64,000 bases of DNA from Amphibalanus amphitrite (lineage: Eukaryota): contig NW_024881729.1 of NCBI RefSeq assembly GCF_019059575.1, positions 480,406 to 544,405 of the forward strand, read 5' to 3'. Under the pieces are notes generated by a model. That model saw only the letters and a list, made by a program, of their open reading frames with translations, was not told the origin of the DNA and ran no database searches. The translations under genes and the position numbers were made by a program. Shown piece by piece: positions 4,601-62,822 of the stretch. Numbering within the stretch: the first letter of the stretch is position 1; each line of letters begins with the position of its first letter.

Positions 4601-5917
4601 TTATTGAGATACATTGGTCAGATAAGGCCCAGTCAGAGATGGTCTGTTTTGCCGTTGACCGGTATGGTTAGCTACAATCGGTGAGGACTGAGACCTTGCT
4701 GGCCCGGTCCTCACGGTCGTGGGCAGAATCAGACCATGACCTGTTCGCTTACGGGCCGGGCCCGCGGTCTGAAACGGTCCGGCCCAATAGTGTCTGAATC
4801 CATGCCTTCCATACAGCGGGTAATCACTCGGTTCCGTTACAGAGACACCGTCAGGTATGGGCCAGTTTGCAGTTGTTTTTTTTTTTTCGTGGAGCTCACA
4901 TAGGGGAAGGTTAGCCCCGCCCGGTGTCCTGCCGAGCAGAGTCCGGTCTAGCACGGGTCCGGTCACCGCTGAGCTCACTGTCCTAGTTTTATTTTATATC
5001 CGTCTAACAGCCCAGGACCCAGGTGGTGACCGTCTAACCATGCGTGAACTGCTCTTCATGTGTGCTGAACTCTGAACTAGAGAACATAATCGTTGTGCCG
5101 CTATGTTCCGCTTACCTAATCCTGAATCCATCTTCTCCAGTTCTCCTCGTGAACGGAGTCACTACAATCGTCAATCTCCGGTAGGTATATGCATTATGCA
5201 GCATCGCTGCAGGATGTGAACGGTTAGGTACGCTATGCCTAAATACCGTTGAGTAGGCGCACACCACTCGTAACACCCAGGTCTATAGAACGGTCTGCGA
5301 ACATCACCGTTAGCGTGGTGCCGAGTTTAGCGGACTGCTACTCCGGCGAGCCGAGCTGTCAGCACTCCTTGAGAGTCGAGCCGACTGCAGTGCCCGCTGG
5401 CTGTGTCGGGTGTAGCTCAGAGGAGTTCAGCGATTCGGTAACCGATTTTTGACGGCGGTGGATCGAGGCTGTAGCGTGGTCTTTCAGTCCACAGTACGAG
5501 CAACATGTGGACAGTGCGGCCAGTGTGGACAGTGTGGACATTGTGGACAATGTGTACAGTGAGTGGTTCTGCAGCAATGGGTAGTTCAGGTGGATCGGTG
5601 ACAAGTCTGGAGATGCAGCTCGAAATGGAACTGTCCCGGCACATTGCAGTCTGGGAGGAGCAGGGTCTGATCCCTGACCGGTCCCTTACATCCCCTGGAG
5701 AGCTGCAGGAGCCTCGGCAGGTCGGAGCACCTGTGACCAACTCCACCACAGCGACAGAGAGGCTCGGGCTGCGCTCGAGGACCCGGCGCCGCGTGCCCGT
5801 CCTCTACATGAAGAAAAACAACAAGAAACGACCGTGTGTGAACACAGGCGGAATTCTGTCCGGATTCAACAGCTTCAACTATCTCAGCTTCGTCGTGGGC
5901 ATAATGACGCTGGTGTT

Positions 5918-6012
5918 GAATATCAATAACAACATCAATAATAACAATAATAACAACAACAATAATAATAACAACAATCTGGACAATAATAATGTGAACG
6001 CCAACTTGAACA
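5918..6012 (+). repeat. An (AAT/AAC)n trinucleotide tract encoding poly-Asn within ORF 5505-6050.
   Basis: The sequence reads aataataacaataataacaacaacaataataataacaacaat... and ends at a possible GTAAGG donor at 6031. Confidence 0.8.
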
Positions 6013-7717: not shown

Positions 7718-7836
7718 GTGAACATCATGCCGCCGGGCCGTCGAAGGAGACGGAGACGGAGACGGAGACGGCGCAGGTCGTTCCGGGCTCACATGAAGGA
7801 GAGGCAGCGGGAGCTGGAGGACATGGTCCGCAGCTG
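7718..7836 (+). CDS. Speculative exon encoding (V N I) MPPGRRRRRRRRRRRRSFRAHMKERQRELEDMVRSW, an Arg-rich, protamine-like tract. A possible initiator ATG is at 7727.
   Basis: A (TC)n polypyrimidine tract is followed by the acceptor cccacag|GTG, with the donor TG|GTACGA at 7837. The frame is open and joins 8082-8289 in phase 2 (W SLAVHGSPP...RRGRRRRG...). There is no homology support. Confidence 0.15.
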
Positions 7837-8595
7837 GTACGATAATCGATTCGATTAATCGGTCGATTCATTCGATTCACTTTACTTATACTGTTACCTA
7901 CAGAAATGTTAGTAGTTGCCGTATAATATCCTTGTTATATAATAATTCTACATCTAGTAATTTTATATTTATGTTTTTGTGATAAGTATATGATATGTTC
8001 ATTAGCAAATAAGCAGTCCGATCAATATAACTTTCGTCCGATCAACATATACCTACTGCCGGTTACGGCATTGTGCCGCAGGTCGCTCGCTGTTCACGGC
8101 AGTCCTCCTGTCTCTCCGTCCTCCGAGAATGGCTGTCCTCAGAGGAGAGGACGCCGCCGCCGAGGACTCTCGGCAGAGCGAGAGGAGGCCGAGTGTGGTT
8201 TAAGAGTGGCCTGCACTCTGCTGGGGCCGCTCGGACACCACCTGCACGCGCACTTACGGTACGATGTGGTTGGCAAAGCACATTTGTGATTCAATTAGGC
8301 TAGCTATAAACATTATGAGGCATTGTGTAATGTTCACAATATAATTCATGGAAACATCTCATCGCTATATATGATGCATGCACCTAAATTTTATAAATAA
8401 AACACTTTTCGGCTATTTTATCATTATTGTAAGAGACGTTTGATATTCCAGATTATCAAGTAACCTTTGTAACCGCGCCGACTCTACACATTTTAAACGT
8501 ATTTAATGCGGCAAGCGCAGTAACAGTTTTCATTTCGAGGTAGGTACATTTTAAACGGGAACCCAGTAACGTATAGGCACATTTATAAACTAAAT

Positions 8596-9793: not shown

Positions 9794-11387
9794 GAACTTG
9801 ACCGTTAAACCCTTCAGTGGTTATTTTTTACCAAGTGTATCGGCTAAACAATGCTTTATCTTGTTTCAGAGATATATAATGATAAAATCTACAAACAGTT
9901 TTATTCGCACTCCGGACTTCAACGGTAGGAAATGAGTGAAATTGGAGGACGTCTGACCCCGTTTATCGGAGAATTAGGATATCGAAGCTGCGAGAAAATG
10001 CAATTTATTTTATGTGCGTTATCATTAGCCGGGTTCAAATTTGCAACTATAACCATGTGCATTGTGCACTGCATAACACATGTGTACAATTTGCAATGCG
10101 TTCTTTGGACAGATGATGATTGATGAATAATGTAATTTGGGTGGTAGCAATTTAGCCAGCTATTACCGTCGCATTGCTCTCATATGTTTTAATAAAATAA
10201 CGCTTTTGCTGCTCATTTTTTATCATGAATGTGGGTCGCGTCTACTTAGAAGCTAGAGAAGAGATCGTTTAGCGCTCGCCTACAATTTATGTTCCACGGA
10301 CGGCTGCCAGCTGCGTGATTGTTTTACACGCGCCAGGCCGTTTGTTGGCCGCCGCGGGGAGTTTCTTCGAGTTTCAATCACTCACTGTGACGGAGTGCGT
10401 GTTAGTGAGTGACGAGCGCCGTCTAACGACTCGTGACAATCCGCTCCGAGCGGCCACAGTCTCTGAGACAGATGGCCTCCTTCGGGCGCGCCTCTTCGGA
10501 CTCTAATGATGGAGCGGTGTAGCGCTATCTTCGATGCACCGTGCGACCAGCGCACGCACGAGGTTTGTGAGTTGATCCAGGTCACCCAGGATCCACCCTT
10601 TTCATGCTCACGCATGCCTCCGACATGCCATTCAGAACGTAACAGTCGTTTCATTATTTCACTTTTTGTCTTATGTTCGCGTGATGTTGACGATACACCA
10701 GGCTGTCTTGTGACTCTGTCCAGCTTGTGTAAATATACAACTGTATACTTGCCGTTGCTTTCGTGACGACTCCTCGCCGTTTCCGTCTCGGCTCCATGAC
10801 GGCTCGGTGACCATTCGTGACCGTTTCCGTAACCGTTCCGTGACCGATTCCGTGACCGATTCCGTGCCGCTGCGCTCCGGCTCGGACCGTTTCGTGACGG
10901 TTCCGTCGCCGCCCGTGGCCGGCCGTGTCCCACTGGTCCGGTGCCGTGGCCCCGTGCCACCGGCGCACCAGTTGCACGCCCCAGCTGCGTTTGGGTGAAC
11001 TAATGGCTGCTCGGGCCGCTGGTGGTGGTAGCGGTAGCGAGTGTGGGCGCCGGGGCGGGGCGGAGGCCGGACCTTCCGGGGTCCTGACCCGGCCCGTGAC
11101 CAGTCGCGTCGAGGCAGCACTGCCGCCGGCAGCGACGGTGCTGACTCCTGAGTTGGACGCCGAGAGTGAGGTTGAACTGAACGGTGTTATCTGGAAGGTG
11201 TAGAATGACGGGCACTGACGTGGTGTGAGTCAATCAAGAACGGATCGAAAACTGGACCCATGGTTGAGCCTTGTGTGTCACCTTGAACATCGTGACGCAA
11301 CCAAAATCGGTATGTAATTCCAGTGAAAAGTGAAGCTCCGTGGTTTAAGGGCGAAACCCTCCACCTGTCTCGCCTTTTAGCTCGACG

Positions 11388-14311
11388 ATGGTGCGCCTTC
11401 TGCAGCCATCGCCGCTGGCCGTTCTTCCACTGTTGCTGTCGCTGCTGACGTTAAGCCCAGGTTACGAGGTGACGGTGTTCGGTCCAGCCACCCTGTCTGA
11501 TCTGCTGCTACACCACGGCTCCGGCTCAGCCGCCGCGCTGACGGTGGCCTCGGCCCTGTCCCCATCGCGGTACATGTCCGTGGACAGGTCAGCCGGTCCA
11601 GACTGGGTCATACAGTGGCAGGATGACGAGGAGATCTCAGAGGATGGCGGAGCTGGAGAGAGTACAGCGCGGGGACAGGACGACCTGGTCAGCGGCTACC
11701 GTCTCCCGGAGCGTGGGTGGCCCTGGCCGGCAGGGGATGACCTAAGGCAGGTCAACAGTTTAGGATACCCAAACACACCACCGAAAGACGGCTTGTCGGC
11801 TCACCGTGTGGATAACCTCACATCATACATCACCTCGTTGACTGCACGTGACGCAGCCATCGTTGATACCGGCACGAAACATGACACGAACGGGACCGGC
11901 TTTAAGGAGGCTGTTCGAGACACGCTCGCCACGATTTTCGAGGAGATGCTGCGCCGTCCGAACGTCACAGAGGTCAGCACCGAGGCCACAGAGGTCACCG
12001 AAGTCACCAGTGTGGCGGAGACGGGGCTGGAGGCCCCTTACGAGGCCGGCTCGGAACCATTCCTGGAGGATCAGCTGGCCACCGCCTCCACCATTTTAGG
12101 GCCGTCAGACGACGGATCCCCACTGGGTCCGTGCAGTACCTGTGCCGACAGCCTCCAGTGGACCCCAATGCTCGGCTCCAGTCCTGGTCCGGGTGGTTCG
12201 GCGAAAGGTGACTTGGGCACCAGCGACTCTCAGTGGCTGGTCATCACAAAGACGGCCGACACGCACCCCATCTACGGCGACCCTGATCTGACGGCCGAAT
12301 CCAGTCAGGACGCGCTGGAATCAGTGAATGGACTCGAGCTCGGCGACTACGACTCGGCGTTTAGCTCCGACTCCGGGTGGTCGGCCGGAGACAACGAGTA
12401 CAGGTACGAAGACCAGACCGCAGCCAGCTCCATACCGAGGGCCGGCATAGTATCCCGGATGTCCCGCATCTGGAACGGCATGAGGAGGAGGATCCGCAGA
12501 CTGTTCCCCTCCTGGGAGTACCTCACGACATGGAGGACGCCCTGGTGGTACGAGCGACACGTCAGGCGAAACAGGAACAGACCCCATCGACGTCGCAAGA
12601 GACCAAGACCGTCATATGGAGCACCCAGGCCAAGGCCTTCGTACGGAGCTCCGAAACCCAAGCGAAAGCCTCAACCTTCATATGGACCACCAAAGTCTAA
12701 GCGAAGGCCCAGACCTTCGTATGGGCCTCCCAAGCCCAAACGAAAGCCAAGGCCATCATACGGGCCACCAAAGGCAAAACCAAAACCATCGTATGGACCA
12801 CCAAAAGCAAAACCGAAACCATCGCATGGGTCACCGAAGTCGAAGCCAAACTCTTCGTATGGACCTCCAAAGTCTAAGCCAAATGCATCGTATGGGCCAC
12901 CCAAGTCTAAACCAAACGCATCGTATGGGCCACCTAAATCCAAACCAAATGCTTCGTACGGACCACCGAAGTCAAAACCCAAGACATCTTATGGACCACC
13001 AAAGAGTAAACCCAAAGCATCATACGGACCACCGAAGTCTACGTCGAGCGCGTCTAACGGTGCTCCGAATTCCAAGCCAAGCTCTTCATACAACACTCCA
13101 AGCAGACCCAGTCAAACATATGGAGCTCCCAGGAAACGACCAAGCCAGATGTACGGTCCTCCCTACAACTCTCAGTTGCCGACTCTACGCGGGTCGCCGA
13201 ACCGTCGCGATGGGACACGGCCCTCCGAGCCCATAGACGTCCAGCCGTTTCCGACTACCTACACACCGCAGGTCTCCGGCTTCGGCGCCGTGAGCGAGGC
13301 AGCTCTAGACGCACACACCCTCGACCCGGTCACAGAAGTGGACTACGGCACGGCACCGGCCGAAACTGATACGCTGGACGAGTTTGACCATCCTCGCCGA
13401 CCCAATAGACCTCACAGACCTCACAGACCTCACGGACCTCACGGGCCTCACAGGCCACACAGGCCGGCCGAGCACCGGTTCCCGTCGTTCGACTGGCTCA
13501 GCGCTCCGTTCCGCGCCGCGTACGACTGGCAGATGGGTCTGCTAGGAGGCTTCCTCCGGCGCATGTCGACATTCCCGTCACTCAACTGGGGAGTTCCCTC
13601 CATTCGATTCCCACTTCTGCCAAGTGTTCTGAGGCGCGATGAGCGCTGGGATAGGACCAGAGCTGATGAGAGAGGTCAGGTGCTGCAATACACGGACTGG
13701 GGTGAGCCGGACTCGACGATCCTCCAGGACCGAGCCGGTCTGCCCGCCGGTACCGGCAGGTCGTCGGTGGTGGACGGCCTTCTCTCGGCGCTCGTTGTTC
13801 TTCCGTTCGCGCTGTTCGCGGCGGAGCGTGCCGTGGCCCTTGGAGAGGTGCTTGGTAACACCACCGCAAACCTCTGGGTGGTGGACGCGCTGACCCAGGA
13901 GGGAGGAGGTCAGGTGGCGGGCGCAGGATCCAGACTGCTCCGCGAGCTAGAGATCCTGACGGAACGCTGTACAGACGGCCTGACTGATGACGCTGAAGGA
14001 GCCAGCAGACAGCAGCAAGAACATGCCACCAACATCACCACCAAATATCTTGACCAAAGCGAAGCAAACGCTTCTGAAGACGCTGACCACCTTGCTGAAG
14101 GAAGTGGTGAAGAGGTTGCTGACGAGATTAGCCACCAGACCTGTCCCTCCGGCTCCAGCACCGTGGGTCACCTGTTGGGCACCTACCGCTCGCTGTCCGG
14201 CTCCGTCGCCGCCCTGCCCGATGACCTGACCTGCCGCCCGCTGGCGCTGTGTCACGAGCTGAGGGCCAGGGTCGACAGCCCAGCCGATATCGCCGCCGCC
14301 ATCGCCGTACT
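11388..14311 (+). CDS. Gene A exon 1: a secreted repetitive protein. It has a signal peptide, ~18 copies of (K/R)PxxSYGPPK(S/A)K undecapeptide repeats, an HRPHRPHGPHGPHRPHRP tract, and a C-terminal C-x5-C motif.
   Basis: An uninterrupted 975-codon ORF starts MVRLLQPSPLAVLPLLLSLLTLSPG. It ends at a perfect GTGAGT donor (14312-14317) overlapping the in-frame TGA; the exon ends in phase 2. Confidence 0.6.
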
Positions 14312-14652
14312 GTGAGTACCCCCGGAGATTGTTAACTAACCGTATAATGGGGCACTTCAATTTAAAATTAGCGTTTCAAAGAATTATTGCTAAATGTTAT
14401 TATGTAACTTTATGTGATAGGGCATTCATATATGTACTGCAAGCATTTATAAATTTTAACAATGAGGTATTTAAGTTTTAATAATAAACAAATTTTGTGT
14501 CGTTATCAATGTTATCATTTTCGGTGTTAGCCTGCCCTATACAATACTGGGAACAAAAGATATTTGTTTGGAAAGCTTGTTTACATATGCTTTAGCGGTT
14601 TTCCATCGCTAAATTACGTAGACCCTGTTCAGCTTATTTTACCGTTTTACAG

Positions 14653-14794
14653 GGCGGTTCAGTCAGCCATGAGCGATGCACCCGTCTGGAACCTCCTGAG
14701 TCTGGGAGCTTCGCTATGGGACGCAACGGACGACAGCAGCGACCTCTCGTGCTGGTCTCGTGCCGCAGAAAGCTGCTCAGCTGACCCGACCTGA
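14653..14794 (+). CDS. Gene A terminal exon: (L)AVQSAMSDAPVWNLLSLGASLWDATDDSSDLSCWSRAAESCSADPT followed by the stop.
   Basis: The acceptor ttttacag|G is at 14651-14652, and the frame continues from exon 1 in phase 2. It carries the second Cys pair of the shared C-terminal module. Confidence 0.55.
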
Positions 14795-17070: not shown

Positions 17071-17608
17071 CTATGGCAATCACCTCTAGGTCCTCCAAGT
17101 TTCCATCCCGGCGTCTGTGGAGGACAATGATGCTCGCTGCGCTGACCGTGCCCGGCCCTGCGGCGCCCTCGCTCGTGCCCCGGTCCCTAGCGCGGCCGGC
17201 TAACCGTCTGCTCGCGGCGACAGCCAGGTCGTCCATGGGCTACGGGGGCGGCGGCGGCATGCTGCTCCCCAGTTTCGGGATGCTGCTCACGGGGCTCAGT
17301 TTCCTAGCGTTCGGCACGTTCCTGTTACTGCTGGTACAGCAGGCGATCGGTGGCGGCGGCACGGGTACGGGCGGCGGCACCGGAGGCCGCAGAGACGGAG
17401 GTGCCGCAGAGGTCGGACTCTGGTCCGAGCTGACCTTCCTGCTGGGCAGCGTGGACGAGGTGCCCGAGCTGGCAGCCGAGGCGCTGCTGAGCACCTCCCG
17501 GCTGCTGGTGCTGGAGAGGTCAGGCTGCGTGGCCCGCCGGCTCTGTCAGCTCAACAGCCGAGCGCAGCAGCAGGAGGTCTACAAAGGACTCATCTATAAC
17601 CTCGTCAG
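17071..17608 (+). CDS. Gene B exon 1: a Gly-rich protein with a hydrophobic helix, ending ...RSGCVARRLCQLNSRAQQQEVYKGLIYNLV(R/S). The start codon is uncertain: 17071 or 17125.
   Basis: The ORF ends at the donor CAG|GTGAGA (17609). The C-x5-C motif aligns to gene A (TCRPLALCHELRARVDSP) and gene C (QCGRRLLCELNQKARSQ). Confidence 0.45.
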
Positions 17609-18020: not shown

Positions 18021-18273
18021 GGGAATACCAAATGACTCGTATGCATGTAAATAGCGTTTATTCAAGATATCGGACATGGCGCTGACTATTACGTAGCCGT
18101 TCGATACTCGGTCTCGAATAGGTACACCAAATAATTAAAGTATTTTCTCACGAGATAATTTTGGATGAAGATAAGAATATTTCAATTGGCTGACAAAAAA
18201 ATGTAATCTCTCGCTGATGGCATTGTTTAATGTTTGACCCCGTTCCCGTACTGACCAGAGACCCCTTTCACAG

Positions 18274-18397
18274 TGTCGGGACGTCCCTGATCCCCACGGC
18301 GGAGGTCTCTCTGTGGGAGAAGCTGGCCGCCGTCCTGGAGGCCAGGACGGGAGGACGCTGTGAGGCGACGTTCTCCTGCGTTGATAAACCGGGATGA
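18274..18397 (+). CDS. Gene B terminal exon: (S)VGTSLIPTAEVSLWEKLAAVLEARTGGRCEATFSCVDKPG followed by the stop.
   Basis: The acceptor is ctttcacag|T and it continues phase 2 from 17608. It is homologous to the terminal exons of genes A and C (second Cys pair RCEATFSC versus DCVATFDRC versus SCWSRAAESC). Confidence 0.45.
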
Positions 18398-25002: not shown

Positions 25003-25320
25003 AATAACTGGCGCCGGTAACTCGCTGGTCACGCTAGCGGTGCTCGCGCTGGGAGTCCTCCTTTTCGACGCCATCAACGACGCTCTGGCGGGCGGCGGGG
25101 GCGGCCGGTCCGCCGGCGGTCTCTGGGGCCGTCTGCTGGGTCCCGAGCTGCTGCGATGGGCGACACCGCCGGACCGCTGGGACAGACTCCTGGCGGAGTT
25201 GGAAGATGAGGAAGCGTCGGCAGGCCGGGAGGTGCTGCTCCCCGGGCCGGGAATCATCGGCGAGTACATCAACAGTCTGCTGGAGATCGGCCTCAACATG
25301 ATCACAGTGTGGATGCATGG
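25003..25320 (+). CDS. Gene C exon 2: (R)ITGAGNSLVTLAVLALGVLLFDAINDALAGGGGGRSAGG...EYINSLLEIGLNMITVWMH(G).
   Basis: The acceptor is acccacag|A, and the exon is open in the required phase-2 frame. The donor is GTGAGT at 25321. Confidence 0.45.
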
Positions 25321-25579
25321 GTGAGTGGGATGGGTGAGGGCAGCGAGAGACGAGGGGCTTACCGAGAGGAGCACGGTTTCGGTAGTTGCATCTTGTGCCG
25401 GGGCGGGGAAGGGGAGGGTCAAGGGAGCCCATAGAGAGGTGATTTAATTTTAACCATAGCATGCCAGCAATTATCTTGAAACAGCTCGATTTGTGTATAT
25501 TTCTAGCAGCGAGAAGCGGTACCGTATTTGTCCACCTAGCGGTCATTCGATGAACCACTAGTTACCGTTCTGTCCGCAG

Positions 25580-25799
25580 GGAGGCGGGCTCGCAGTGCGG
25601 TCGCCGTCTGCTGTGTGAGCTGAATCAGAAGGCCCGCTCGCAGTCAGCACTGCACTCAGCGCTGACGTATACGGGCGGCCTGCTGCTGTCACTGCTGCTG
25701 CCTGAGGCGTCTCCCTCCGACCATCTGCTGGCCATGAGGCAGGGACGGCGCGGAGCCGACTGTGTGGCCACCTTCGACCGGTGTCAGGTCACACTGTGA
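25580..25799 (+). CDS. Gene C terminal exon: (G)EAGSQCGRRLLCELNQKARSQSALHSALTYTGGLLLSLLLPEASPSDHLLAMRQGRRGADCVATFDRCQVTL followed by the stop.
   Basis: The acceptor is tgtccgcag|G. It contains the complete four-Cys C-terminal module shared with genes A and B. Confidence 0.55.
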
Positions 25800-27069
25800 C
25801 ACAGGTCAGGTTAGGTGACACGGTCAAAGGTCAGGAAACACCGTGTACAGGTCAGGGCAGGTGACACCGTGACACTGATCATGTGACACGGACACAGGTC
25901 AAGTCGTGATCACAGATACGATGGGAGCGTGACGTGGCATTGAAGACAAGTGATAGCTGGTACAGTGATTGAGTCTAACTCACTTCTAGGTATATGTACT
26001 ACTATTATGTACGATGTTAGGGTTAGTACTGTGACTGAAGTCAGCTGTAAACGGTCCAGAGGTAAGGTATCTGACAGAGAGCAGCTCTTCGCGTTTGATG
26101 ATGTGTCGAACTCTAAATAGGGCAGTGACCGACCGGTTATATCACCCAGGCTGGCTCAGCTCGGCACTGGCGACAGTGGCATTATGTTACATGCACCATG
26201 TTGTCCTCAGAGGCAAATGCGCCGTCCAGGACATATTATACCAGTTTGCCCGGGTGAGCCTAACGAGCCGTCAAACGACTCCTATGTAGCATGTTTTATC
26301 CAACGATTCAGGTTGAGCTCTGCGGTCGACATTTGAGGCTTGGCGGTACTGCATCGTTTTCAGTGGAATTAGTGCATGTCTGTTGTCGAATTCCAAAAAC
26401 AGAAATTGGAGCGCCCGGGAGACGCCTGACATTCGACAATGTACGATACCGTGTGTGGTTGACGAGCAGAAACAGCCTCGTTTTGATTTTATGTGCATGC
26501 TAGCTGTTCTAAGGAGTAAGAATAGTGAATAAGTAAACAAAACTGAAATGAGATTCTATTTCCGAATGCTATTCTGTTTTCTAGGCCATCTTGGCGTACT
26601 GATCATTTCATCAAGCATTATAAATTTCCCTTACTATTTTATATTGTATTATGTTCTTTAGAAGACAACAAGTACACAAGGCGGACACAAAGACTACAAT
26701 AATGGCATTAGGCGCCGAGCTGTACGCCTACAAAGCAGCACACCCTGCCAGAAGCGCACTTCAGCCACAGCCAACTCTGCGGACGCGAACCAACCAGCAC
26801 GGCACGGACAAATCACCCTAGTGCGCAACCAACTATCACGTGACGATTACATGGGACTCACGTATTCCTAGCACCCTATTCCGAGGCAAGCGGCAGTAGA
26901 TAAGAGCACACATGGACGCGAGCGAACCCCGGCAGGAGCCTAGGCTGGGTCGGGAGCTGGGGGGCTCGAGCGAGGCAGACAGTCACCAGGCATCATCTAC
27001 CGTTGGAACGGACCCGTGCTTACAGGCGAAAGCTGGCGAGCAGCACTCTGAAATGAATGCTGCGGTCTT

Positions 27070-28705: not shown

Positions 28706-31145
28706 CTAGCGCGGCCGCTGGACGGCCGACTCGGTCCCGGCCGCCTGGCCCAGTCCCACCAGGCCCTGGGCGGTGTTCAGCAGGCTGATGGGAGTGCGTC
28801 CGTCGGTGATGAGCGTGGACTGCAGGCCCAGACTCTGCAGCATGCGCACCTGGTGGTCGCCGCCAGCAGTGGCCATGGCCTTCAACGTCTCGGCGCCCAT
28901 CGCCGACACCATCTGCTGGAACTTCTCGATCTCGATGTTGGCCATCTCCTTGGAACGCGCGATCTCCAGCTGGTTGCTCTCCTCGGTGTACTTGAGCTCG
29001 GCCTCGCGCGCCGAGCGCAGCCGCTCCAGCTCCGACTCGGCCTCGATGTTGGCGGCGCGCGCCTTCAGGCCGGCCTGCTCCACGGCCGCCTCTCCCTCGA
29101 TGCGGGCCGCCTCGGCGCGGCTCTGCGCCTCGGCCTTGGCCTGACCGGTGCTCTCGATGGCCGCGCACGCCGTCTGCAGCTCGACGAGCTCCTTACGCGC
29201 CTGCTCCGCGGCCGCCTCGTCCTTAATCTTCTGCCGCTCGAGTCGGCCACGCGCCTCCTGTTCCGTGCGCTCGGCCTCGTGCTTGGCGGCCGCCTCCTGA
29301 GCGTTGGTGGTGATCTCGATGGCCAGCTGGACGCTCTTCTGGAGCGAGTCGCGCGTCCGCTGGTCCACCGGCTCCACACTCTGGATGTCGATCGAGGTGA
29401 CCACAAGGTTGTTCTGCGGAAACACAAACTGTTTGCGCACCTTGCCAGCGTCGTCCAGACCGAACACAGACTGCCGGATGATTTTGGCCGAGTTCTTGTG
29501 GAAGTCATCGAATGGTCGCTGCGCCACGGCGCCGCGCACACGAGACGCGATCGCCTTGCACGCGTCGCCCACAAAGTCAGGCACGCTGAAGATCTTGCAC
29601 GCATCCTCGGCAGTCTTGTTGCCGACATCAAAGTGCCAGTTGTAGGCAATCTGCAGCGAGAGACGCGCGTGGTCGGACGTCTCGACAGTGACAATATCAG
29701 TGCAGAAGTCGGGTCCGAGCAGCAGCGACAGCGCCCGGATCGTGTTGGGCTTCTTGGGCTTGCCACCGGACAGGGAGAGTTGCGTGAACTGTTCGTCCGG
29801 CTCCAGCATCACCAGGTCGGGGCCGAACACAACGCGCGACCGCTTCGCCTTGTAGTCGTAGACCTGAACGGCTGCGTTGTGCGGCACGCGGTAGGTGATG
29901 ACGCGGGTGCGGTCGCTCAACTCGTCATGGCTCTTGTTGGTCGCTGACCGTCTCAGCTCCCGGTAGCCGCCGCGGTCGGCCAGCGCGTCGGTACGCAGCA
30001 GCTCCACCACGCTGGCGGGCAGCTCCTTCTCCCACAGCTCCTCGTCCTGGGTGAGCATGTAGGTCTGTCCACAGACGGCGCGCACCTCGCCCGTGCGGTT
30101 GTTGCGCACGTAGATACCCTCGGTGCGGTCGAGCGGGATAGCCGTCTGCTGGACGACCACCTCCACCTCGATGGGCGGCACGAACTCCACGGGCCCGGTG
30201 ACCATCCAGCGGTCTCCGGGCCGGCGCGTCACCGGCGGCGTCACTGTGTTGTCAGTGAACGCCTCGCCGGCGCGCAGCACCAGCGCCTCGTTCTCCTGGA
30301 GGATGTAGTTGTCGCGGACGTCGTCTTCCAGCGTCTCACCGGGCTGCAGGAAGAACGACTTCTCACCGCGCACCAGCCGACGCTGGCCGAGCTGCGGCTT
30401 GCCGTCCGGCCCGACCGGGTCGCAGATGACGCAGTACTGCCGGCTGGTGAGGGTGGTCACCTCGCGTTCCTCCACCACCTCCTCGTACACGTCTGGGATG
30501 AACGTTTCCATATCGTCGAAGCGCACCAGCCACTCCTCGCCGTTCTTCCTGCGCACGCCGCGACTGTCGGTGAAGGTGCGAGTGGCGCGCACCAGAAGAG
30601 CCGTCTTCTCCGTCAGCACGTGAGCGTTCACCATCTTGGCCACCTCCTCGTAGACGCCGGGCATGTAGGCGCCGACTCTGGTCACCAGCCATTCCTCGCC
30701 GGCCACCCGCTTCTGGCCCTTCCAGTCGGTGGTTTCGAGTCGTGCCCGCAGTCGGAGCGCCTGGTTCGGCCCGATGATGATGGCCTTGATATCGGCCACC
30801 TCCTCGACCTCCGGACGCGGCACGTAGGTGCCCGGCCCGAACAGCCACTCATCGCCGGCGGAGCGCACCACCTCCCCCTCCTTGAACTCGCGCAGCGCGC
30901 GCAGGTGGAGCGCCTTGTTGGGCGGGACCACCTTCAGCGGCAGCACGGCCGAGCTGAGCTTCTCGCCCGGGTACAGCGGGAATGGGTCCTGGTGCAGCCG
31001 CACCTCCGTGTCGGCGTGCAGCAGGCGCGCCTGGCCGCTGGCGTCGCACACCACCTGACCGTCCTCGCCGCGCACCACCGGGTTCTCGACGACACAGTAG
31101 TGGCGCGGCGGCACCACCACCATGGCGTTCGGGCCGACGATGACC
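28706..31145 (-). CDS. MVP: Major vault protein (MVP), main 3' coding exon: R + [22 protein letters not shown] ... to the stop. The acceptor ctccag|GG lies at 31145/31146.
   Basis: The 805-aa ORF aligns end to end with vault MVP repeats and the shoulder/cap-helix region ([56 protein letters not shown]). Together with the upstream exon the phase-2 junction reconstitutes ...DNER|VIVGP, as in human MVP. Confidence 0.9.
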
Positions 31146-37505: not shown

Positions 37506-37618
<113 letters not shown>

Positions 37619-44204: not shown

Positions 44205-44555
44205 CCTGCTAAAACATCAAACAGTCGACACGAATACAAACATTCAAACATTTCAGCCATTTTCCGTAGTATTGACGGCTATAAAACATCAAAACAGTCG
44301 ATACAAACAGTCGACACGAATACCTACAAACATTCAAACATTTCAGCCATTTTCCGTAGTATTGACGGCTACAAACATGAAAACAGTCGATACAAACAGT
44401 CGACACGAATACAAACATTCAAACATTTCAGCCATTTTCCGTAGTATTGACGGCTATAAAACATCAAAACAGTCGATACGACTACAAACTGAACACCACT
44501 TCAAACATTTCACTGGTCAGCTCAGCCATCTTTCGTGTTATTGACGGCTAGGCAG
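44205..44555. repeat. Subterminal tandem repeat: an ~85-bp unit (caaacatttcagccattttccgtagtattgacggctataaaacatcaaaacagtcgatac...) in about 4 copies.
   Basis: Direct repeats are visible in the sequence, immediately downstream of the transposase ORF's stop codon. Confidence 0.7.
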
Positions 44556-44559
44556 CAGC

Positions 44560-47500
44560 CTATCCCATCAGGTCACGGACGTTTGTCCCGTTGAGGGATA
44601 GCCAGAAGGCGGTCTTATGACCATCCATAAGAGGTGTTAGGTTGTTGATGATTTTGGCCAACTTTTCCTTGTTAACCCCCCTGGGAGTCGTTCGCCTCTC
44701 TGGCTGCTCACATGGAATAAAAGTTGTTTTGAAAAGGTCGTAAGCCGACCACTTTGGGTGCCCATGGACAACCTTCACGTACAGTCGGTCGTCGTCCCGC
44801 CGCACCTGAACGACCTTTATTTCCCGCAGGAGCGGTCGCTTCTCCTCATCAGCGAGACGCTTCAGCTTCGTAGCGCTCACCCCACTGCTGACATCGAAAA
44901 AATCTCCCGGCGCCATCACATGCACTGAGCCCGCCATCTCACATGCCACAACGTAGTCCCGAAAGTCTTGCACACGCACACTAGATTTTGAAAGTTTTTT
45001 GCTCACCACCTGGTGCACCGCATCAGCAGACATACTAGTATGTCCCTTCTCTAAAAACTTGACTGTGATGGTTTTGACTGCAAGATCGCTCCTGTTGACA
45101 CAATTTTGAAGAGCCGAGAGCAAGGTCCAGTTTTTGTTTTGGGCAGAGCAGTTATCTGCCCAGAAGGTGAACTGTTTCGTGTTGTGGTTCAGCTCCACGA
45201 ACTTTATGAATGTTGAAGCGACGTCTGGTGCATCTCGGCCAGACACGCCCTCGTGCCACAAGACGGACACAGCCCCCTTTCCTCCCAACGGCGCGAAAGT
45301 CTCGTTGTAAGTTACAAGTCGCGGGGTGAATACGCACACTTTGTGAGGGAGGATGGGAAGGAGAGCGACCCTCATCATGTCCACGGAAACAATCAGGTGC
45401 GACTCTGCTGACGCTGTGGTTTCGCGGTCTCGGGCGTACTCTGCCCTAGCCTGTTCGGCGCGATCGTGGTGGGCGGCGTGTTCCTGGCACGTGCTGCACG
45501 ACTCATGTTCAAAGCAAGTTTTCACGTGGTGGTCAAATGCAGTACATATCTCGCACTCTTCTTGGCCTAAGCGAGCGAACGACACGTTGGCACTTCGCAG
45601 CGCTTTGCGAAACCGCTCGTAAGAGCAGATCTTGCCCTTTTCCTCCACAAGCTGCTGGTACATCACAGCTGCGTTGAGGTCCGGTGCGAGATATCGGCGT
45701 CTGGGGGCGTGCAGGTAGCGGTAGTGCGGTGCCATCGGACGGTACCGCTCAATGTGCCGCTGCAGCTCGTCCTCGAGTCTGGCTGCCACCGGGTTTGCCG
45801 CGCGCCCCCGCCTGTCCTGCTTTGGGATGAGTCGTCCCACGGCAGATATGATCGGACCGTCATTGTTCGCTGCGAAGCCGAGGGTTGTGAGACAGAACTC
45901 CTTGCACACCCTTCGATCGACCTGTTCTCCAGCTACAGGGAGACGGTAGGCGATGATGCGCCGCTTGGCAGATGCGGTGTTGGTGAGTGGTGGGCTGTCA
46001 GTGACAATGGGAGTAATGTCTCGCACGTGAGTGGCGTACCACTGCATCCTAGCCTCCCTTGAAAGTGAATTGACGGCCTCGTTGATGGCCTGGCGTTGTT
46101 CTTCACTGAAGTGAGTGGCACAACCGAATGAGCACGTGCGATTGCTGCAGGCAGGAGGCATGGGACGGACTGCATGCTTCTGTTTAAAGCCCAGAATTTG
46201 GTGTTCCTGAGTACGAGCTCGTTTTTTTGCGCCCGTGTGACTGCCCACCGTTGTCGGACGAGGAGCATCGGATGCCCCATCTACTGAGGAAGAAGCCCCG
46301 TGGGTGCTAATCGAGGCAGCGTCAAGTCCATCTCCACCGCAGTCCATGGACCGTGGGTTCGGGTCGTCTGGATCGACATTTGCGGTGTGTGCTGTCGGAA
46401 AGCCTCCCCAGCTAGACGCATGAGCGGCGCTACGTGGGTGGGGCGGGGCCATAGGGGCCATGTCACTATCACCTGCTGCGCCGGTACCAGAGGGACCAGA
46501 GGAAGCAATCGATAGGTCAGCGAGGGGTACATCGTTGAATGACGACATGTCACTGCCGGACGTATCCAGGAGTCGCAGGAAATCAAAAGGTCCCGGATCA
46601 ACTAGGTCATTTATGTCAGTCAGACCAATCACGTCATGAGTCGCGACCTCTGTCGACACAGCCCAGGGGTCTTGCTCCCCGACGAAGGTCCCCTGCTCTG
46701 CGGCTGGGGTCCCGCCCTGCTCCGCGGCTGAGGTACCCTGCTCCGCGGCTGGAGTCTCGCCCTGCTCCACTGCAAAAGTCCCCTGCTCCGCGGTCGGGGT
46801 CCACTGCTCCGCGGCAGAGGTCCCCTGGCCACCGGACGGGGTCACGCCCTGCTCCGCGGCCCGCTCTCCAGCAAAGGTCCCCTGCTCCGCGGCAGAGGTC
46901 CCCTGGCCACCGGACGGGGTCACGCCCTGCTCCGCGGCCCGCTCTCCAGCAGAGGTCCCCTGCTCCGCGGCAGAGGTCCCCTGGCCACCGGACGGGGTCA
47001 CGCCCTGCTCCGCGGCCCGCTCTCCAGCAAAGGTCCCGTGCTCCGCGGCAGAGGTCCCCTGGCCACCGGACGGGGTCACGCCCTGCTCTGCGGCCCGCTC
47101 TCCAGCAGAGGTCCCCTGCTCGGCGGCAGAGGTCCCCTGGCCACCGGACGGGGTCACGCCCTGCTCCGCGGCCCGCTCCCCAGCAAAGGTCCCGTGCTCC
47201 GCGGCAGAGGTCCCCTGGCCACCGGACGGGGTCACGCCCTGCTCCGCGGCCCGCTCTCCAGCAGAGGTCCCCTGGCCACCGGACGGGGTCACGCCCTGCT
47301 CCGCGGCCCGCTCTCCAGCAGAGGTCCCCTGCTCCGCGGCAGAGGTCCCCTGGCCACCGGACGGGGTCACGCCCTGCTCCACGGCCCGCTCTCCAGCAGA
47401 GGTCCCGTGCTCCGCGGCAGAGGTCCCCTGGCCACTGGACGGGGTCACGCCCTGCTCCGCGGCCCGCTCTCCAGCAGAGGTCCCCTGCTCCGCGGCAGAG

Positions 47501-47721
47501 GTCCCCTGGCCACCGGACGGGGTCACGCCCTGCTCCACGGCCCGCTCTCCAGCAGAGGTCCCCTGCTCGGCGGCAGAGGTCCCCTGGCCACCGGACGGGG
47601 TCACGCCCTGCTCCGCGGCCGGGTCGCAGCTGCCCGCCGGGGAGAGCACCTGTACAAAAAAAGTATTTTTTAATCGATATCCATGACAAGTCAAATCATT
47701 GATTGTACGAAATATCTGCAA
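44560..47721 (-). CDS. Transposase-like protein of 1053 aa. The N-terminal ~330 aa is a tandem AEQGVTPSGGQGTSAAEQGTSAGERA repeat. The C-terminal ~550 aa has Cys/His clusters and DDE-like blocks (LIVSVDMM..., FTFWADNCSAQNKNW).
   Basis: This is the longest ORF in the window. It lies inside a TIR-bounded element. The D-N-C-S-A-Q-N-K-N motif resembles the second-Asp block of hAT/MULE-type transposases. The superfamily cannot be assigned without a search. Confidence 0.5.
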   Translation of the reverse strand: MQIFRTINDLTCHGYRLKNTFFVQVLSPAGSCDPAAEQGVTPSGGQGTSAAEQGTSAGERAVEQGVTPSGGQGTSAAEQGTSAGERAAEQGVTPSSGQGTSAAEHGTSAGERAVEQGVTPSGGQGTSAAEQGTSAGERAAEQGVTPSGGQGTSAGERAAEQGVTPSGGQGTSAAEHGTFAGERAAEQGVTPSGGQGTSAAEQGTSAGERAAEQGVTPSGGQGTSAAEHGTFAGERAAEQGVTPSGGQGTSAAEQGTSAGERAAEQGVTPSGGQGTSAAEQGTFAGERAAEQGVTPSGGQGTSAAEQWTPTAEQGTFAVEQGETPAAEQGTSAAEQGGTPAAEQGTFVGEQDPWAVSTEVATHDVIGLTDINDLVDPGPFDFLRLLDTSGSDMSSFNDVPLADLSIASSGPSGTGAAGDSDMAPMAPPHPRSAAHASSWGGFPTAHTANVDPDDPNPRSMDCGGDGLDAASISTHGASSSVDGASDAPRPTTVGSHTGAKKRARTQEHQILGFKQKHAVRPMPPACSNRTCSFGCATHFSEEQRQAINEAVNSLSREARMQWYATHVRDITPIVTDSPPLTNTASAKRRIIAYRLPVAGEQVDRRVCKEFCLTTLGFAANNDGPIISAVGRLIPKQDRRGRAANPVAARLEDELQRHIERYRPMAPHYRYLHAPRRRYLAPDLNAAVMYQQLVEEKGKICSYERFRKALRSANVSFARLGQEECEICTAFDHHVKTCFEHESCSTCQEHAAHHDRAEQARAEYARDRETTASAESHLIVSVDMMRVALLPILPHKVCVFTPRLVTYNETFAPLGGKGAVSVLWHEGVSGRDAPDVASTFIKFVELNHNTKQFTFWADNCSAQNKNWTLLSALQNCVNRSDLAVKTITVKFLEKGHTSMSADAVHQVVSKKLSKSSVRVQDFRDYVVACEMAGSVHVMAPGDFFDVSSGVSATKLKRLADEEKRPLLREIKVVQVRRDDDRLYVKVVHGHPKWSAYDLFKTTFIPCEQPERRTTPRGVNKEKLAKIINNLTPLMDGHKTAFWLSLNGTNVRDLMG
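46680..47640. repeat. A 78-bp minisatellite of ~12 units, some 57-bp variants. It encodes the Ala/Glu/Gln/Gly-rich N-terminal repeat of the transposase-like ORF.
   Basis: The unit gtcacgccctgctccgcggcccgctctccagcagaggtcccctgctccgcggcagaggtcccctggccaccggacgggg is periodic. All six frames are open across it. Confidence 0.85.
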
Positions 47722-62483: not shown

Positions 62484-62822
62484 GTGGAGTGGAGTGGAGG
62501 GACTGGGGACGGGCGAGCTGCTGAATAGGATTTTAGGATGCGATGAATGAATTTTGTCATTTGGCGTCGATCAAGGGAGGAAGGGTTTGGTGAGGCGGGG
62601 TGTGTTTTGTGGGCTAGAATGTAGATTGTTTCGATGGTGTATTCATATTTTGTTGTAAACGATTCGTTCATATGTGTCATTCATTCATTCATTCATTCAT
62701 TCATTCATTCATTCATTCATTCATTCAATCAATCAATCAATCAATCGTTCAATCAATCAATCCACTATGGTCACTGGGTCTCACCTTCTCCCATCTGACT
62801 CCGATCCGCTCTCTTCTCACAG

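Follow-up and report, generated by a model that had tools for sequence, protein, structure and literature searches.

The 64,000-nucleotide window analyzed in this study (Amphibalanus amphitrite contig NW_024881729.1, positions 480,406 to 544,405 of the forward strand) is genomic DNA of the acorn barnacle, and it contains a tandem repeat of short Tyr-, Lys- and Pro-bearing peptides encoded inside a single plus-strand open reading frame (ORF) of 975 codons at 11388-14315. The ORF belongs to a real, conserved, annotated but uncharacterized barnacle-specific gene, referred to here as gene A. The explanation that accounts best for the data, which is put forward tentatively, is that the protein is a secreted component of the extracellular matrix, restricted to barnacles and for the most part disordered, with the repeat region as its central module. 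The repeat itself reads as a cationic variant of the YG(A/P)P structural motif known from arthropods, and in its charge and composition it recalls a mussel adhesive protein, a likeness that is suggestive of mussel-like design in a barnacle.

The tandem repeat

The repeat is present far beyond what chance would give. Seventeen units follow one another (two of 9 amino acids [aa], three of 13, eleven of 11 and one of 10), and Y-G-(P/A)-P is found in 14 of the 17 (11 YGPP and 3 YGAP), with SHGSP, SNGAP and SYNTP in the three degenerate units. At the DNA level the codon pattern TAY-GGN-SCN-CC occurs 14 times inside 12615-13162 and 17 times in the whole window, where about 1.9 occurrences are expected, and the window total was reached by none of 100 shuffles. 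An earlier note on this DNA, made from the letters alone, had described about 18 undecapeptides at 12560-13200 with a 33-bp DNA period. The tandem repeat is real and lies inside those limits, but it starts at 12600 and only 11 of its units are undecapeptides. The 33-bp period holds from 12754 to 13039, where Tandem Repeats Finder reported 8.7 copies with 77% matches (score 257; higher orders at 66 and 99 bp), whereas the first five units have a period of 27 or 39 bp. The program reported the longer of these two periods as a 39/78-bp array at 12627-12773, with period 39 at 12657-12773.

The first two units both read RPRPSYGAP, and they are followed by the three 13-aa units and by ten contiguous 11-aa units (Table 1). 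The x position of the 11-aa consensus K(A/S)KP(K/N)xSYGPP is P, A, S or T, and the last two of these ten units are degenerate (KSTSSASNGAP and NSKPSSSYNTP). Unit 16 is SRPSQTYGAP (10 aa) and the final unit is RKRPSQMYGPP (11 aa). In each regular unit a single Tyr occurs together with Lys and Pro, as the earlier note had observed. The repeat as a whole, which contains 15 Tyr but lacks Asp and Glu, has a pI of 11 and a net charge of about +44. Pro makes up 28% of its residues, Lys and Arg together 23-25%, Ser 17% (Ser and Thr together about 18-19%), and Tyr and Gly 8% each. The His-Pro repeat that had been described along with the array is also real and follows it, at 13407-13462, about 240 nt past the end originally given to the region. 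Over 12855-12965 (aa 488-523), four consecutive A. amphitrite units read K-P-N-(S/A)-S where the orthologs described below read K-P-K-P-S, and these units create four N-x-S glycosylation sequons that are apparently species-specific.

Coding status and gene structure

The 975-codon ORF is 100% identical to the A. amphitrite RefSeq proteins XP_043230385.1 and XP_043246407.1, each of 1021 aa and named 'uncharacterized protein'. The identical protein is annotated at two RefSeq loci, LOC122393962 and LOC122385866. The second copy is either a haplotype left uncollapsed or the outcome of a very recent duplication. By tblastn the RefSeq protein maps to the window as two exons. The donor of the first (CT/GTGAGT at 14311, with the slash at the exon boundary) is kept in an ortholog locus on another assembly contig, here called L001. 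The last exon adds 46 residues and has a counterpart in L001 at 14004-14144, with 57% aa identity and the ending ...SCPADPT.

Gene A is a working coding gene under selection on the peptide. Three identical KSKPNASYGPP peptides in the repeat are written with different codons, and where units differ in the codons of S-Y-G-P-P, the change is almost always in the third position. Because the units vary at synonymous sites, the repeats are old and have been held at the protein level, and are not the product of recent slippage. Tyr is the best-conserved residue of the unit. The ratio of nonsynonymous to synonymous divergence (dN/dS) against the L001 ortholog was 0.275 for the N-terminal domain (computed over an alignment block that also takes in the basic Trp-rich junction), 0.38 for the linker after the repeat and 0.465 for the C-terminal domain. 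In the repeat dS is saturated, and its dN of 0.185 is the lowest of any region.

The earlier note had named a pseudogene as the finding that would undo its interpretation. A pseudogene is excluded because dN/dS lies between 0.28 and 0.47 and both the splice donor and the last exon are conserved. The wider alternative, that the region is a pseudogene, an incorrectly annotated intron or simply low-complexity DNA without meaning, draws on one published gene model: the older GenBank model KAF0307362 (FJT64_002293) treats 12404-13451 as an intron, with GT at 12404 and AG near 13451, and so splices the repeat out. This alternative is effectively refuted. The frame is open for 975 codons, and the ortholog lacks the putative donor at 12404, having TACCGGCAC there. 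Further, dN is lowest in the repeat, which is kept in three species, and codon differences between units at the core positions are synonymous. Since its donor is not conserved and the part that it removes is the best-conserved region, the intron in KAF0307362 is regarded as an artefact. The same model joins the gene to exons at 17196-17606 and 18272-18394, which are Gly-rich, hydrophobic and without a Pfam match, whereas the RefSeq model ends at 14794. ORFs on the opposite strand and in the +2 frame over the repeat were rejected as by-products of stop-free repeat DNA.

Orthologs and distribution

Two full-length orthologs were found, with about 48-57% identity and sharing every domain with the A. 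amphitrite protein. P0003 (1211 aa) lies on the European Nucleotide Archive assembly contig L001 and P0004 (927 aa) on L002, a scaffold from a TARA metagenome. The 33-bp period and the 11-aa spacing of Tyr are kept in all three orthologs, with a 33-bp copy number of about 9 in A. amphitrite, about 31 in P0003 and about 9 in P0004. The window is collinear with L001 at several non-coding or neighbouring blocks, which suggests that L001 comes from another barnacle. These blocks (5787-5993, 7751-7840, 25016-25328, 25574-25813 and 26638-26875) are 66-85% identical, and two overlapping ORFs located at them have no Pfam match.

An exhaustive phmmer search with the repeat-excised protein against 1.84 billion representative proteins returned only the gene's own GenBank model and the two orthologs, and the roughly 800 non-repeat residues had no match outside barnacles. 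This suggests that the non-repeat domains are a barnacle-restricted orphan, and gene A as a whole looks restricted to barnacles. This search superseded a word-indexed protein search with the C-terminal domain alone, in which there was no match, the gene itself included. A PDB sequence search gave no match at E <= 1, a scan of JGI metagenomes for further orthologs gave 94 pattern matches of which none was confirmed, and nothing relevant to the gene, to PF16058 or to the peptide motif turned up in the literature.

The earlier note had also stated that nothing in the gene was an identifiable homolog. The two orthologs contradict this, as does the Pfam family PF16058 (Mucin-like), which matches aa 516-592 with 60.7 bits against a gathering cut-off of 28.7, a match confined to the repeat. 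P0003 (119.9 bits) and P0004 (30.2 bits) also score above the cut-off. PF16058 amounts to a model of this low-complexity motif. In a Pfam scan of the protein at E <= 1 the only other match was a sub-threshold one to TetR_C, with nothing in the N-terminal domain. The closest matches to the repeat are all at the level of the motif, through PSYG(A/P/Q)P tracts in crab, psyllid, butterfly and weevil proteins, Tweedle-domain proteins and a pro-resilin-like protein, the last with a weak match (E = 0.29). The genera and groups with PSYGPP tracts include Scylla, Diaphorina, lepidopterans and Tweedle/DUF243 cuticle proteins, and some PSYG(A/P)P proteins carry a Tweedle domain (PF03103) or a resilin-type chitin-binding domain (PF00379).

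Architecture of the protein

The features of gene A and of the identified neighbouring genes are listed in Table 1. The candidate signal peptide has small residues at -3/-1 (S-P-G, read from the sequence), and comparable hydrophobic N-termini are found in P0003 and P0004. Because the hydrophobic N-terminus is conserved, secretion is supported, and the protein is probably secreted. Blocks of the N-terminal domain conserved in the ortholog alignment are TLSDLLLHHGSGS, GWVIQWQD, DGLSAHR and DSQWLV, and Asp and Glu make up only about 17% of this domain. Together the basic junction and the repeat form a cationic middle of about +60 in all. The His-Pro tract has a 9-bp period with 6.2 copies and 91% matches. 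A 9-bp repeat stands at the equivalent site of L001 (12738-12822), and the tract is weaker in P0004. In the C-terminal half, aa 794-812 form a conserved hydrophobic segment, which would be either a weak transmembrane candidate or a buried helix. Inspection of the sequence shows a Pro in its middle, no more than about 17 uncharged residues and no cluster of basic residues beside it.

Table 1. Features of gene A and identified neighbouring genes in the window
Feature	Coordinates	Strand	Basis
Tandem repeat, 17 units, core (K/R)-x-(K/R)-P-x-x-S-Y-G-(P/A)-P, aa 405-592	12600..13163	+	Tandem Repeats Finder; unit table; pattern count
Three 13-aa (39-bp) units, K(P/S)KR(K/R)P(Q/R)PSYGPP	12654..12770	+	Tandem Repeats Finder period 39; unit table
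Ten contiguous 11-aa (33-bp) units, K(A/S)KP(K/N)xSYGPP	12771..13100	+	Tandem Repeats Finder period 33; unit table
Coding exon 1, aa 1-975 plus two bases of codon 976	11388..14311	+	ORF list; 100% RefSeq identity
Intron, GT...AG, 341 nt, AT-rich	14312..14652	+	Read from sequence; follows from RefSeq protein mapping
Last coding exon, aa 976-1021, AVQSAMSDAPVWNLL...SCSADPT plus stop codon	14653..14794	+	tblastn, 100% identity
Signal-peptide-like N-terminus, MVRLLQPSPLAVLPLLLSLLTLSPG, aa 1-25	11388..11462	+	Kyte-Doolittle hydrophobic peak aa 1-30; inspection
Acidic N-terminal domain, aa 26-345, pI 4.05, about -37	11463..12422	+	Charge/pI; no known family match
Basic Trp-rich junction, aa 346-404, about +16, near-invariant RRLFPSW(R/E)YLTTWRTPWW	12423..12599	+	Ortholog alignment; charge
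Acidic linker, aa 593-663, pI 4.2, conserved block ALDAHTLDPVTEVDY	13164..13376	+	Ortholog alignment; pI
His-Pro tripeptide repeat (H-R/G-P)n, NRPHRPHRPHGPHGPHRPHRP, within aa 664-692	13407..13462	+	Tandem Repeats Finder
Acidic C-terminal domain, aa 693-975, pI 4.7, motifs RFPSFDWLSAPFR, VLQYTD, LWVVDAL, conserved Cys	13464..14311	+	Ortholog alignment; pI
Conserved hydrophobic segment VVDGLLSALVVLPFALFAA, aa 794-812 (weak transmembrane candidate or buried helix)	13767..13823	+	Kyte-Doolittle 19-residue mean 2.23; kept in both orthologs
Major vault protein, 805-aa ORF, Vault repeats and MVP shoulder	28709-31123	-	Pfam, E down to 1e-63
DUF7869 transposon-like ORF, 1053 aa	44563-47721	-	Pfam match

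AlphaFold2, run with an alignment of the three sequences, gave a mean predicted local distance difference test score (pLDDT) of 33.8 and a predicted template modeling score (pTM) of 0.22. The repeat was modeled as coil and the C-terminal domain as low-confidence helices, with the highest pLDDT (about 50-55) at a low-confidence helix of the Trp-rich junction. The model is consistent with extensive disorder, which it does not prove.

A proposed secreted matrix protein and its alternatives

The model proposed here is that of a charge-block polymer in which a signal peptide, an acidic N-terminal domain, a polycationic middle, an acidic linker, a His-Pro tract and an acidic, Cys-bearing C-terminal domain would follow one another. 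The 17 Pro-rich units would most likely form an extended, unfolded and strongly cationic rod, which could bind polyanionic partners by charge and by Lys/Tyr cation-pi contacts. Such partners could be the acidic ends of the protein itself, acidic components of the matrix or cuticle, or surfaces, either mineral or fouled. One Tyr per 11 residues, flanked by Lys, would provide evenly spaced substrates for extracellular oxidative cross-linking, for which peroxidase-type dityrosine formation, phenoloxidase or quinone adducts to Lys or His, and lysyl oxidase are candidate chemistries, and the His-Pro tract may contribute sites that bind metal, respond to pH or react with quinones. Enzymes for cross-linking are known from A. 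amphitrite, whose secreted proteins include lysyl oxidases and peroxinectins/peroxidases (PMC5099703). The earlier note had called the gene adhesive or sclerotised-protein-like in design. Because (P/S)SYG(A/P)P recurs in arthropod cuticle proteins with Tweedle or resilin-type chitin-binding domains, a cross-linkable structural protein of sclerotised-like design is a reasonable reading, but nothing points to an adhesive location.

Several points weigh against a cross-linked matrix protein. The Pfam scan found no chitin-binding domain of the R&R, Tweedle or CBM14 type, which leaves attachment to cuticle unexplained. The Tyr density of the repeat is about 8%, and classical DOPA or dityrosine proteins are richer in Tyr. 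The signal-peptide call comes from hydropathy and inspection, not from a dedicated predictor, and low AlphaFold confidence with three sequences only is weak evidence of disorder. Finally, aa 794-812 could act as a membrane anchor, which would make gene A a cell-surface protein instead of a matrix protein.

This last point leads to the proposal that gene A encodes a mucin-like cell-surface protein, in which an O-glycosylated, extended stalk would hold the acidic N-terminal domain off the membrane, with aa 794-812 as the anchor and a short cytoplasmic tail after it. In favor of such a stalk are the placement of the repeat in the 'Mucin-like' family PF16058, the N-x-S sequons in four A. amphitrite units, and the presence in every unit of a Ser with Pro at -1 and +3, an arrangement that fits the preference of mucin-type GalNAc transferases. 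The conserved hydrophobic segment, with its Kyte-Doolittle mean of 2.23, also fits. However, the segment is short for an anchor, is interrupted by its central Pro and is not followed by a basic cluster, and the six conserved Cys and the conserved N-(S/T)-T sequon that come after it suit an extracellular C-terminal domain better. Ser and Thr (about 18-19%) are also outnumbered by Lys and Arg (23-25%), unlike in classical Pro/Thr/Ser mucin domains, and a pure glycosylated stalk would not need Tyr, the best-conserved residue of the unit. A mucin-like membrane protein is thus considered unlikely.

The alternation of acidic blocks (pI 4.0-4.7) with strongly basic ones would also suit a shell or biomineral matrix protein, in which the acidic ends would bind calcium carbonate and the Lys/Tyr middle would serve as a tanned organic framework. 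Molluscan Lys-rich and Gly/Tyr-rich matrix proteins offer an analogy for such a protein, barnacles build calcite plates, and the gene is barnacle-restricted. Against this, an Asp and Glu content of about 17% in the N-terminal domain is modest for a mineral-binding protein, and the gene is unmentioned in the main text of a plate-matrix proteome paper (PMC11293433). A role in the shell is regarded as quite unlikely.

In the first five units there are KR, KRR or KRK sites as well as RP(R/Q)PSY motifs, which resemble insect Pro-rich antimicrobial peptides. Together with a tandem array behind a signal peptide, these raise the idea of a polyprotein precursor that would be cut at basic sites into Pro-rich cationic antimicrobial peptides of about 11-13 residues containing PRP and Tyr. 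Most units, however, and nearly all of those in P0003, read K-A/S-K-P-K-P, with Lys followed by Pro and no dibasic site. There are no acidic spacer peptides between the units, and large conserved flanking domains are unexpected for such precursors. A precursor of this type appears very improbable.

An adhesive role is attractive because the organism is a barnacle. In this proposal the protein would be a component of the adhesive interface, Mfp-1-like or primer-like, that forms a coacervate in seawater, drives ions and water off the surface and is afterwards cured by oxidation, either in cyprid or adult cement or in the phenolic, phase-separating fluid secreted ahead of the cement. The composition of the repeat is Mfp-1-like (Pro 28%, Lys and Arg 23%, Tyr 8%, Ser 17%, pI 11), and at the salt level of seawater the polycationic Mfp-1 decapeptide polymer [AKPSYPPTYK]12 coacervates on its own by way of cation-pi contacts between Lys and Tyr (PMC9999432). 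According to the same review, the proteins of the priming fluid (phenolic and lipidic) and of cyprid cement are still unsequenced (PMC9999432), and oxidases are found in the cement (PMC5099703). KAF0307362, the model used for adhesive proteomics, lacks the repeat, and repeat peptides could not be matched there. On the other side, KAF0307362 is absent from the main-text tables of cement proteins in the A. amphitrite adhesive proteome paper, and the bulk cement proteins in them are Leu-, Gly- or Cys-rich with none rich in Pro, Lys and Tyr (PMC8371367). The exhaustive search also found no similarity to any known cement protein family. To our knowledge, DOPA has not been reported in barnacle cement. 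The analysis gave no pointer to DOPA chemistry in gene A, and the comparison with DOPA-crosslinked adhesives drawn by the earlier note is not upheld. An adhesive role is unproven, nothing ties the gene to adhesion, and we consider it unlikely.

A more specific and more speculative version of this idea, to which we give little credence, is that gene A encodes a lineage-specific Mfp-1-like polycationic Tyr/Lys/Pro protein that acts at the adhesive or cuticle-substrate interface as a self-coacervating, oxidatively cured primer. Such a protein could belong to the phenolic priming fluid, which is still unsequenced, or to cyprid cement, and before secretion its cationic middle would be neutralised by its own acidic end-domains. 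One reason for its having been overlooked may be that the repeat is spliced out in the annotation on which proteomics relied.

Genomic neighbourhood

Directly upstream of the start codon, the block 10967-11131 is 72-90% identical in L001 (9569-9712) and L002 (1226-1331), and a 12-bp tandem repeat, GTGACCGATTCC x5, lies at 10807-10866. The 10807-11131 region may be a 5' untranslated region or a promoter element. Gene A apart, the window has 31 ORFs of 150 aa or more. Neighbouring genes were identified with a Pfam scan of 12 window ORFs, namely 10 of these 31 and two shorter sub-ORFs. The earlier note had mentioned tyrosinase or peroxidase genes as possible neighbours, and none was found among these 12 ORFs, in a scan that covered them and not all six frames. 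In animal genomes the closeness of two genes carries little information. The only neighbours identified were the major vault protein, which is the nearest clearly identifiable neighbour gene, and the DUF7869 ORF. The latter contains a 78-bp tandem array at 46798-47620 (95-96% matches, higher orders at 234 and 369 bp), and it appears to be a gene of transposon origin whose coding sequence includes a minisatellite. Three copies of an 85-bp unit form an array at 44218-44479, and the window also contains two microsatellites, a perfect (GA)53 at 37511-37617 and (TCAT)21 at 62677-62759.

Significance

If gene A encodes a secreted matrix protein, it adds one more lineage-restricted structural protein and a clean example of a charge-block, Tyr-spaced, cationic YG(A/P)P design. 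If it acts at the barnacle-substrate interface, it would be a sequenced candidate for the phenolic (Tyr) and Lys cross-linking that is implied by the cement oxidases, for which no substrate protein has so far been named, and it would be an antifouling target and a template for seawater-coacervating coatings. If it proved to be an interface primer, a mussel-like chemistry would have arisen by convergence in an animal whose glue is considered to have nothing in common with the adhesives of mussels. Whatever its function, KAF0307362 lacks the repeat and is fused to downstream exons, and published A. amphitrite proteomics cites KAF accessions. Because these accessions were without the repeat, repeat peptides could not have matched in those searches.

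Comparison with known systems

Gene A was compared with the systems that share some part of its design. It is not a resilin, an Mfp-1, a classical mucin or a member of a named cement protein family, and PF16058 is the only one of these groupings to which it can be assigned. With the arthropod proteins that carry PF16058 or PSYGPP tracts it has the (P/S)SYG(A/P)P repeats in common, and the matching proteins are secreted and in some cases carry cuticle domains. The likeness is limited to the repeat, however, and the barnacle repeat stands out by its Lys-rich K-x-K-P-K-P spacer and by its charge of +44. The domains of the Tweedle and other chitin-binding cuticle families (PF03103, PF00379 and CBM14) were not found in the protein by the Pfam scan. 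In classical mucins the Pro/Thr/Ser domains have roughly a quarter to half of their residues as Ser or Thr, and the repeat, with about 18-19% Ser and Thr and 23-25% Lys and Arg, is not dominated by Ser and Thr.

The cement proteins CP19, CP20, CP34, CP43, CP52, CP57, CP100 and CP105 come from the same organism and, like gene A, are secreted (in the case of gene A, probably so), lineage-restricted and rich in low-complexity sequence. They show no sequence similarity to it in the exhaustive search, and its composition falls outside their Leu-, Gly- and Cys-rich classes.

Mfp-1 (AKPSYPPTYK) has many more repeat units than the 17 found here. Both proteins consist of polycationic Lys/Pro/Tyr/Ser tandem repeats of about 10-11 residues with an A/S-K-P...S-Y...P-P...K string, and both come from marine sessile animals, although the phyla differ. 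The mussel unit has two Tyr, whereas the barnacle unit has 11 aa with one Tyr and is accompanied by large non-repeat domains. No molluscan match was obtained with either the full-length or the repeat-only protein, and no homology was detected. It is plausible, by analogy, that the two share a Lys-Tyr cation-pi coacervating or coating behaviour. The earlier note had regarded the repeat as convergent, and this holds for the mussel-type comparison only, since the YG(A/P)P module is widespread within arthropods.

Resilin is Gly-rich. The barnacle repeat is neither Gly-rich nor near-neutral like resilin (Gly 8%, pI 11, +44), and Lys/Arg spacers replace the Gly, Asn and Asp of resilin. Resilin also has an R&R domain (PF00379) between its repeat blocks, which the Pfam scan did not find in the barnacle protein, and the orphan acidic domains that flank the barnacle repeat have no parallel in resilin. 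Nevertheless, both appear to be secreted arthropod proteins with tandem, disordered, Pro-containing units whose S/Q-Y-G-A/P-P core holds one Tyr. In Drosophila the resilin repeat is GGRPSDSYGAPGGGN and in Anopheles it is the 11-residue AQTPSSQYGAP, both cross-linked through Tyr (PMC9999432). The Anopheles unit has the same length of 11 aa and the same P4/Y8/G9/P11 register as the barnacle unit, and the YGAP-type Tyr core of resilin is found in units 1 and 2 (RPRPSYGAP) and 16 (SRPSQTYGAP) of gene A. Judged on these features, the design appears closest to a YG(A/P)P module of the resilin or cuticle type, with a charge and composition like those of Mfp-1.

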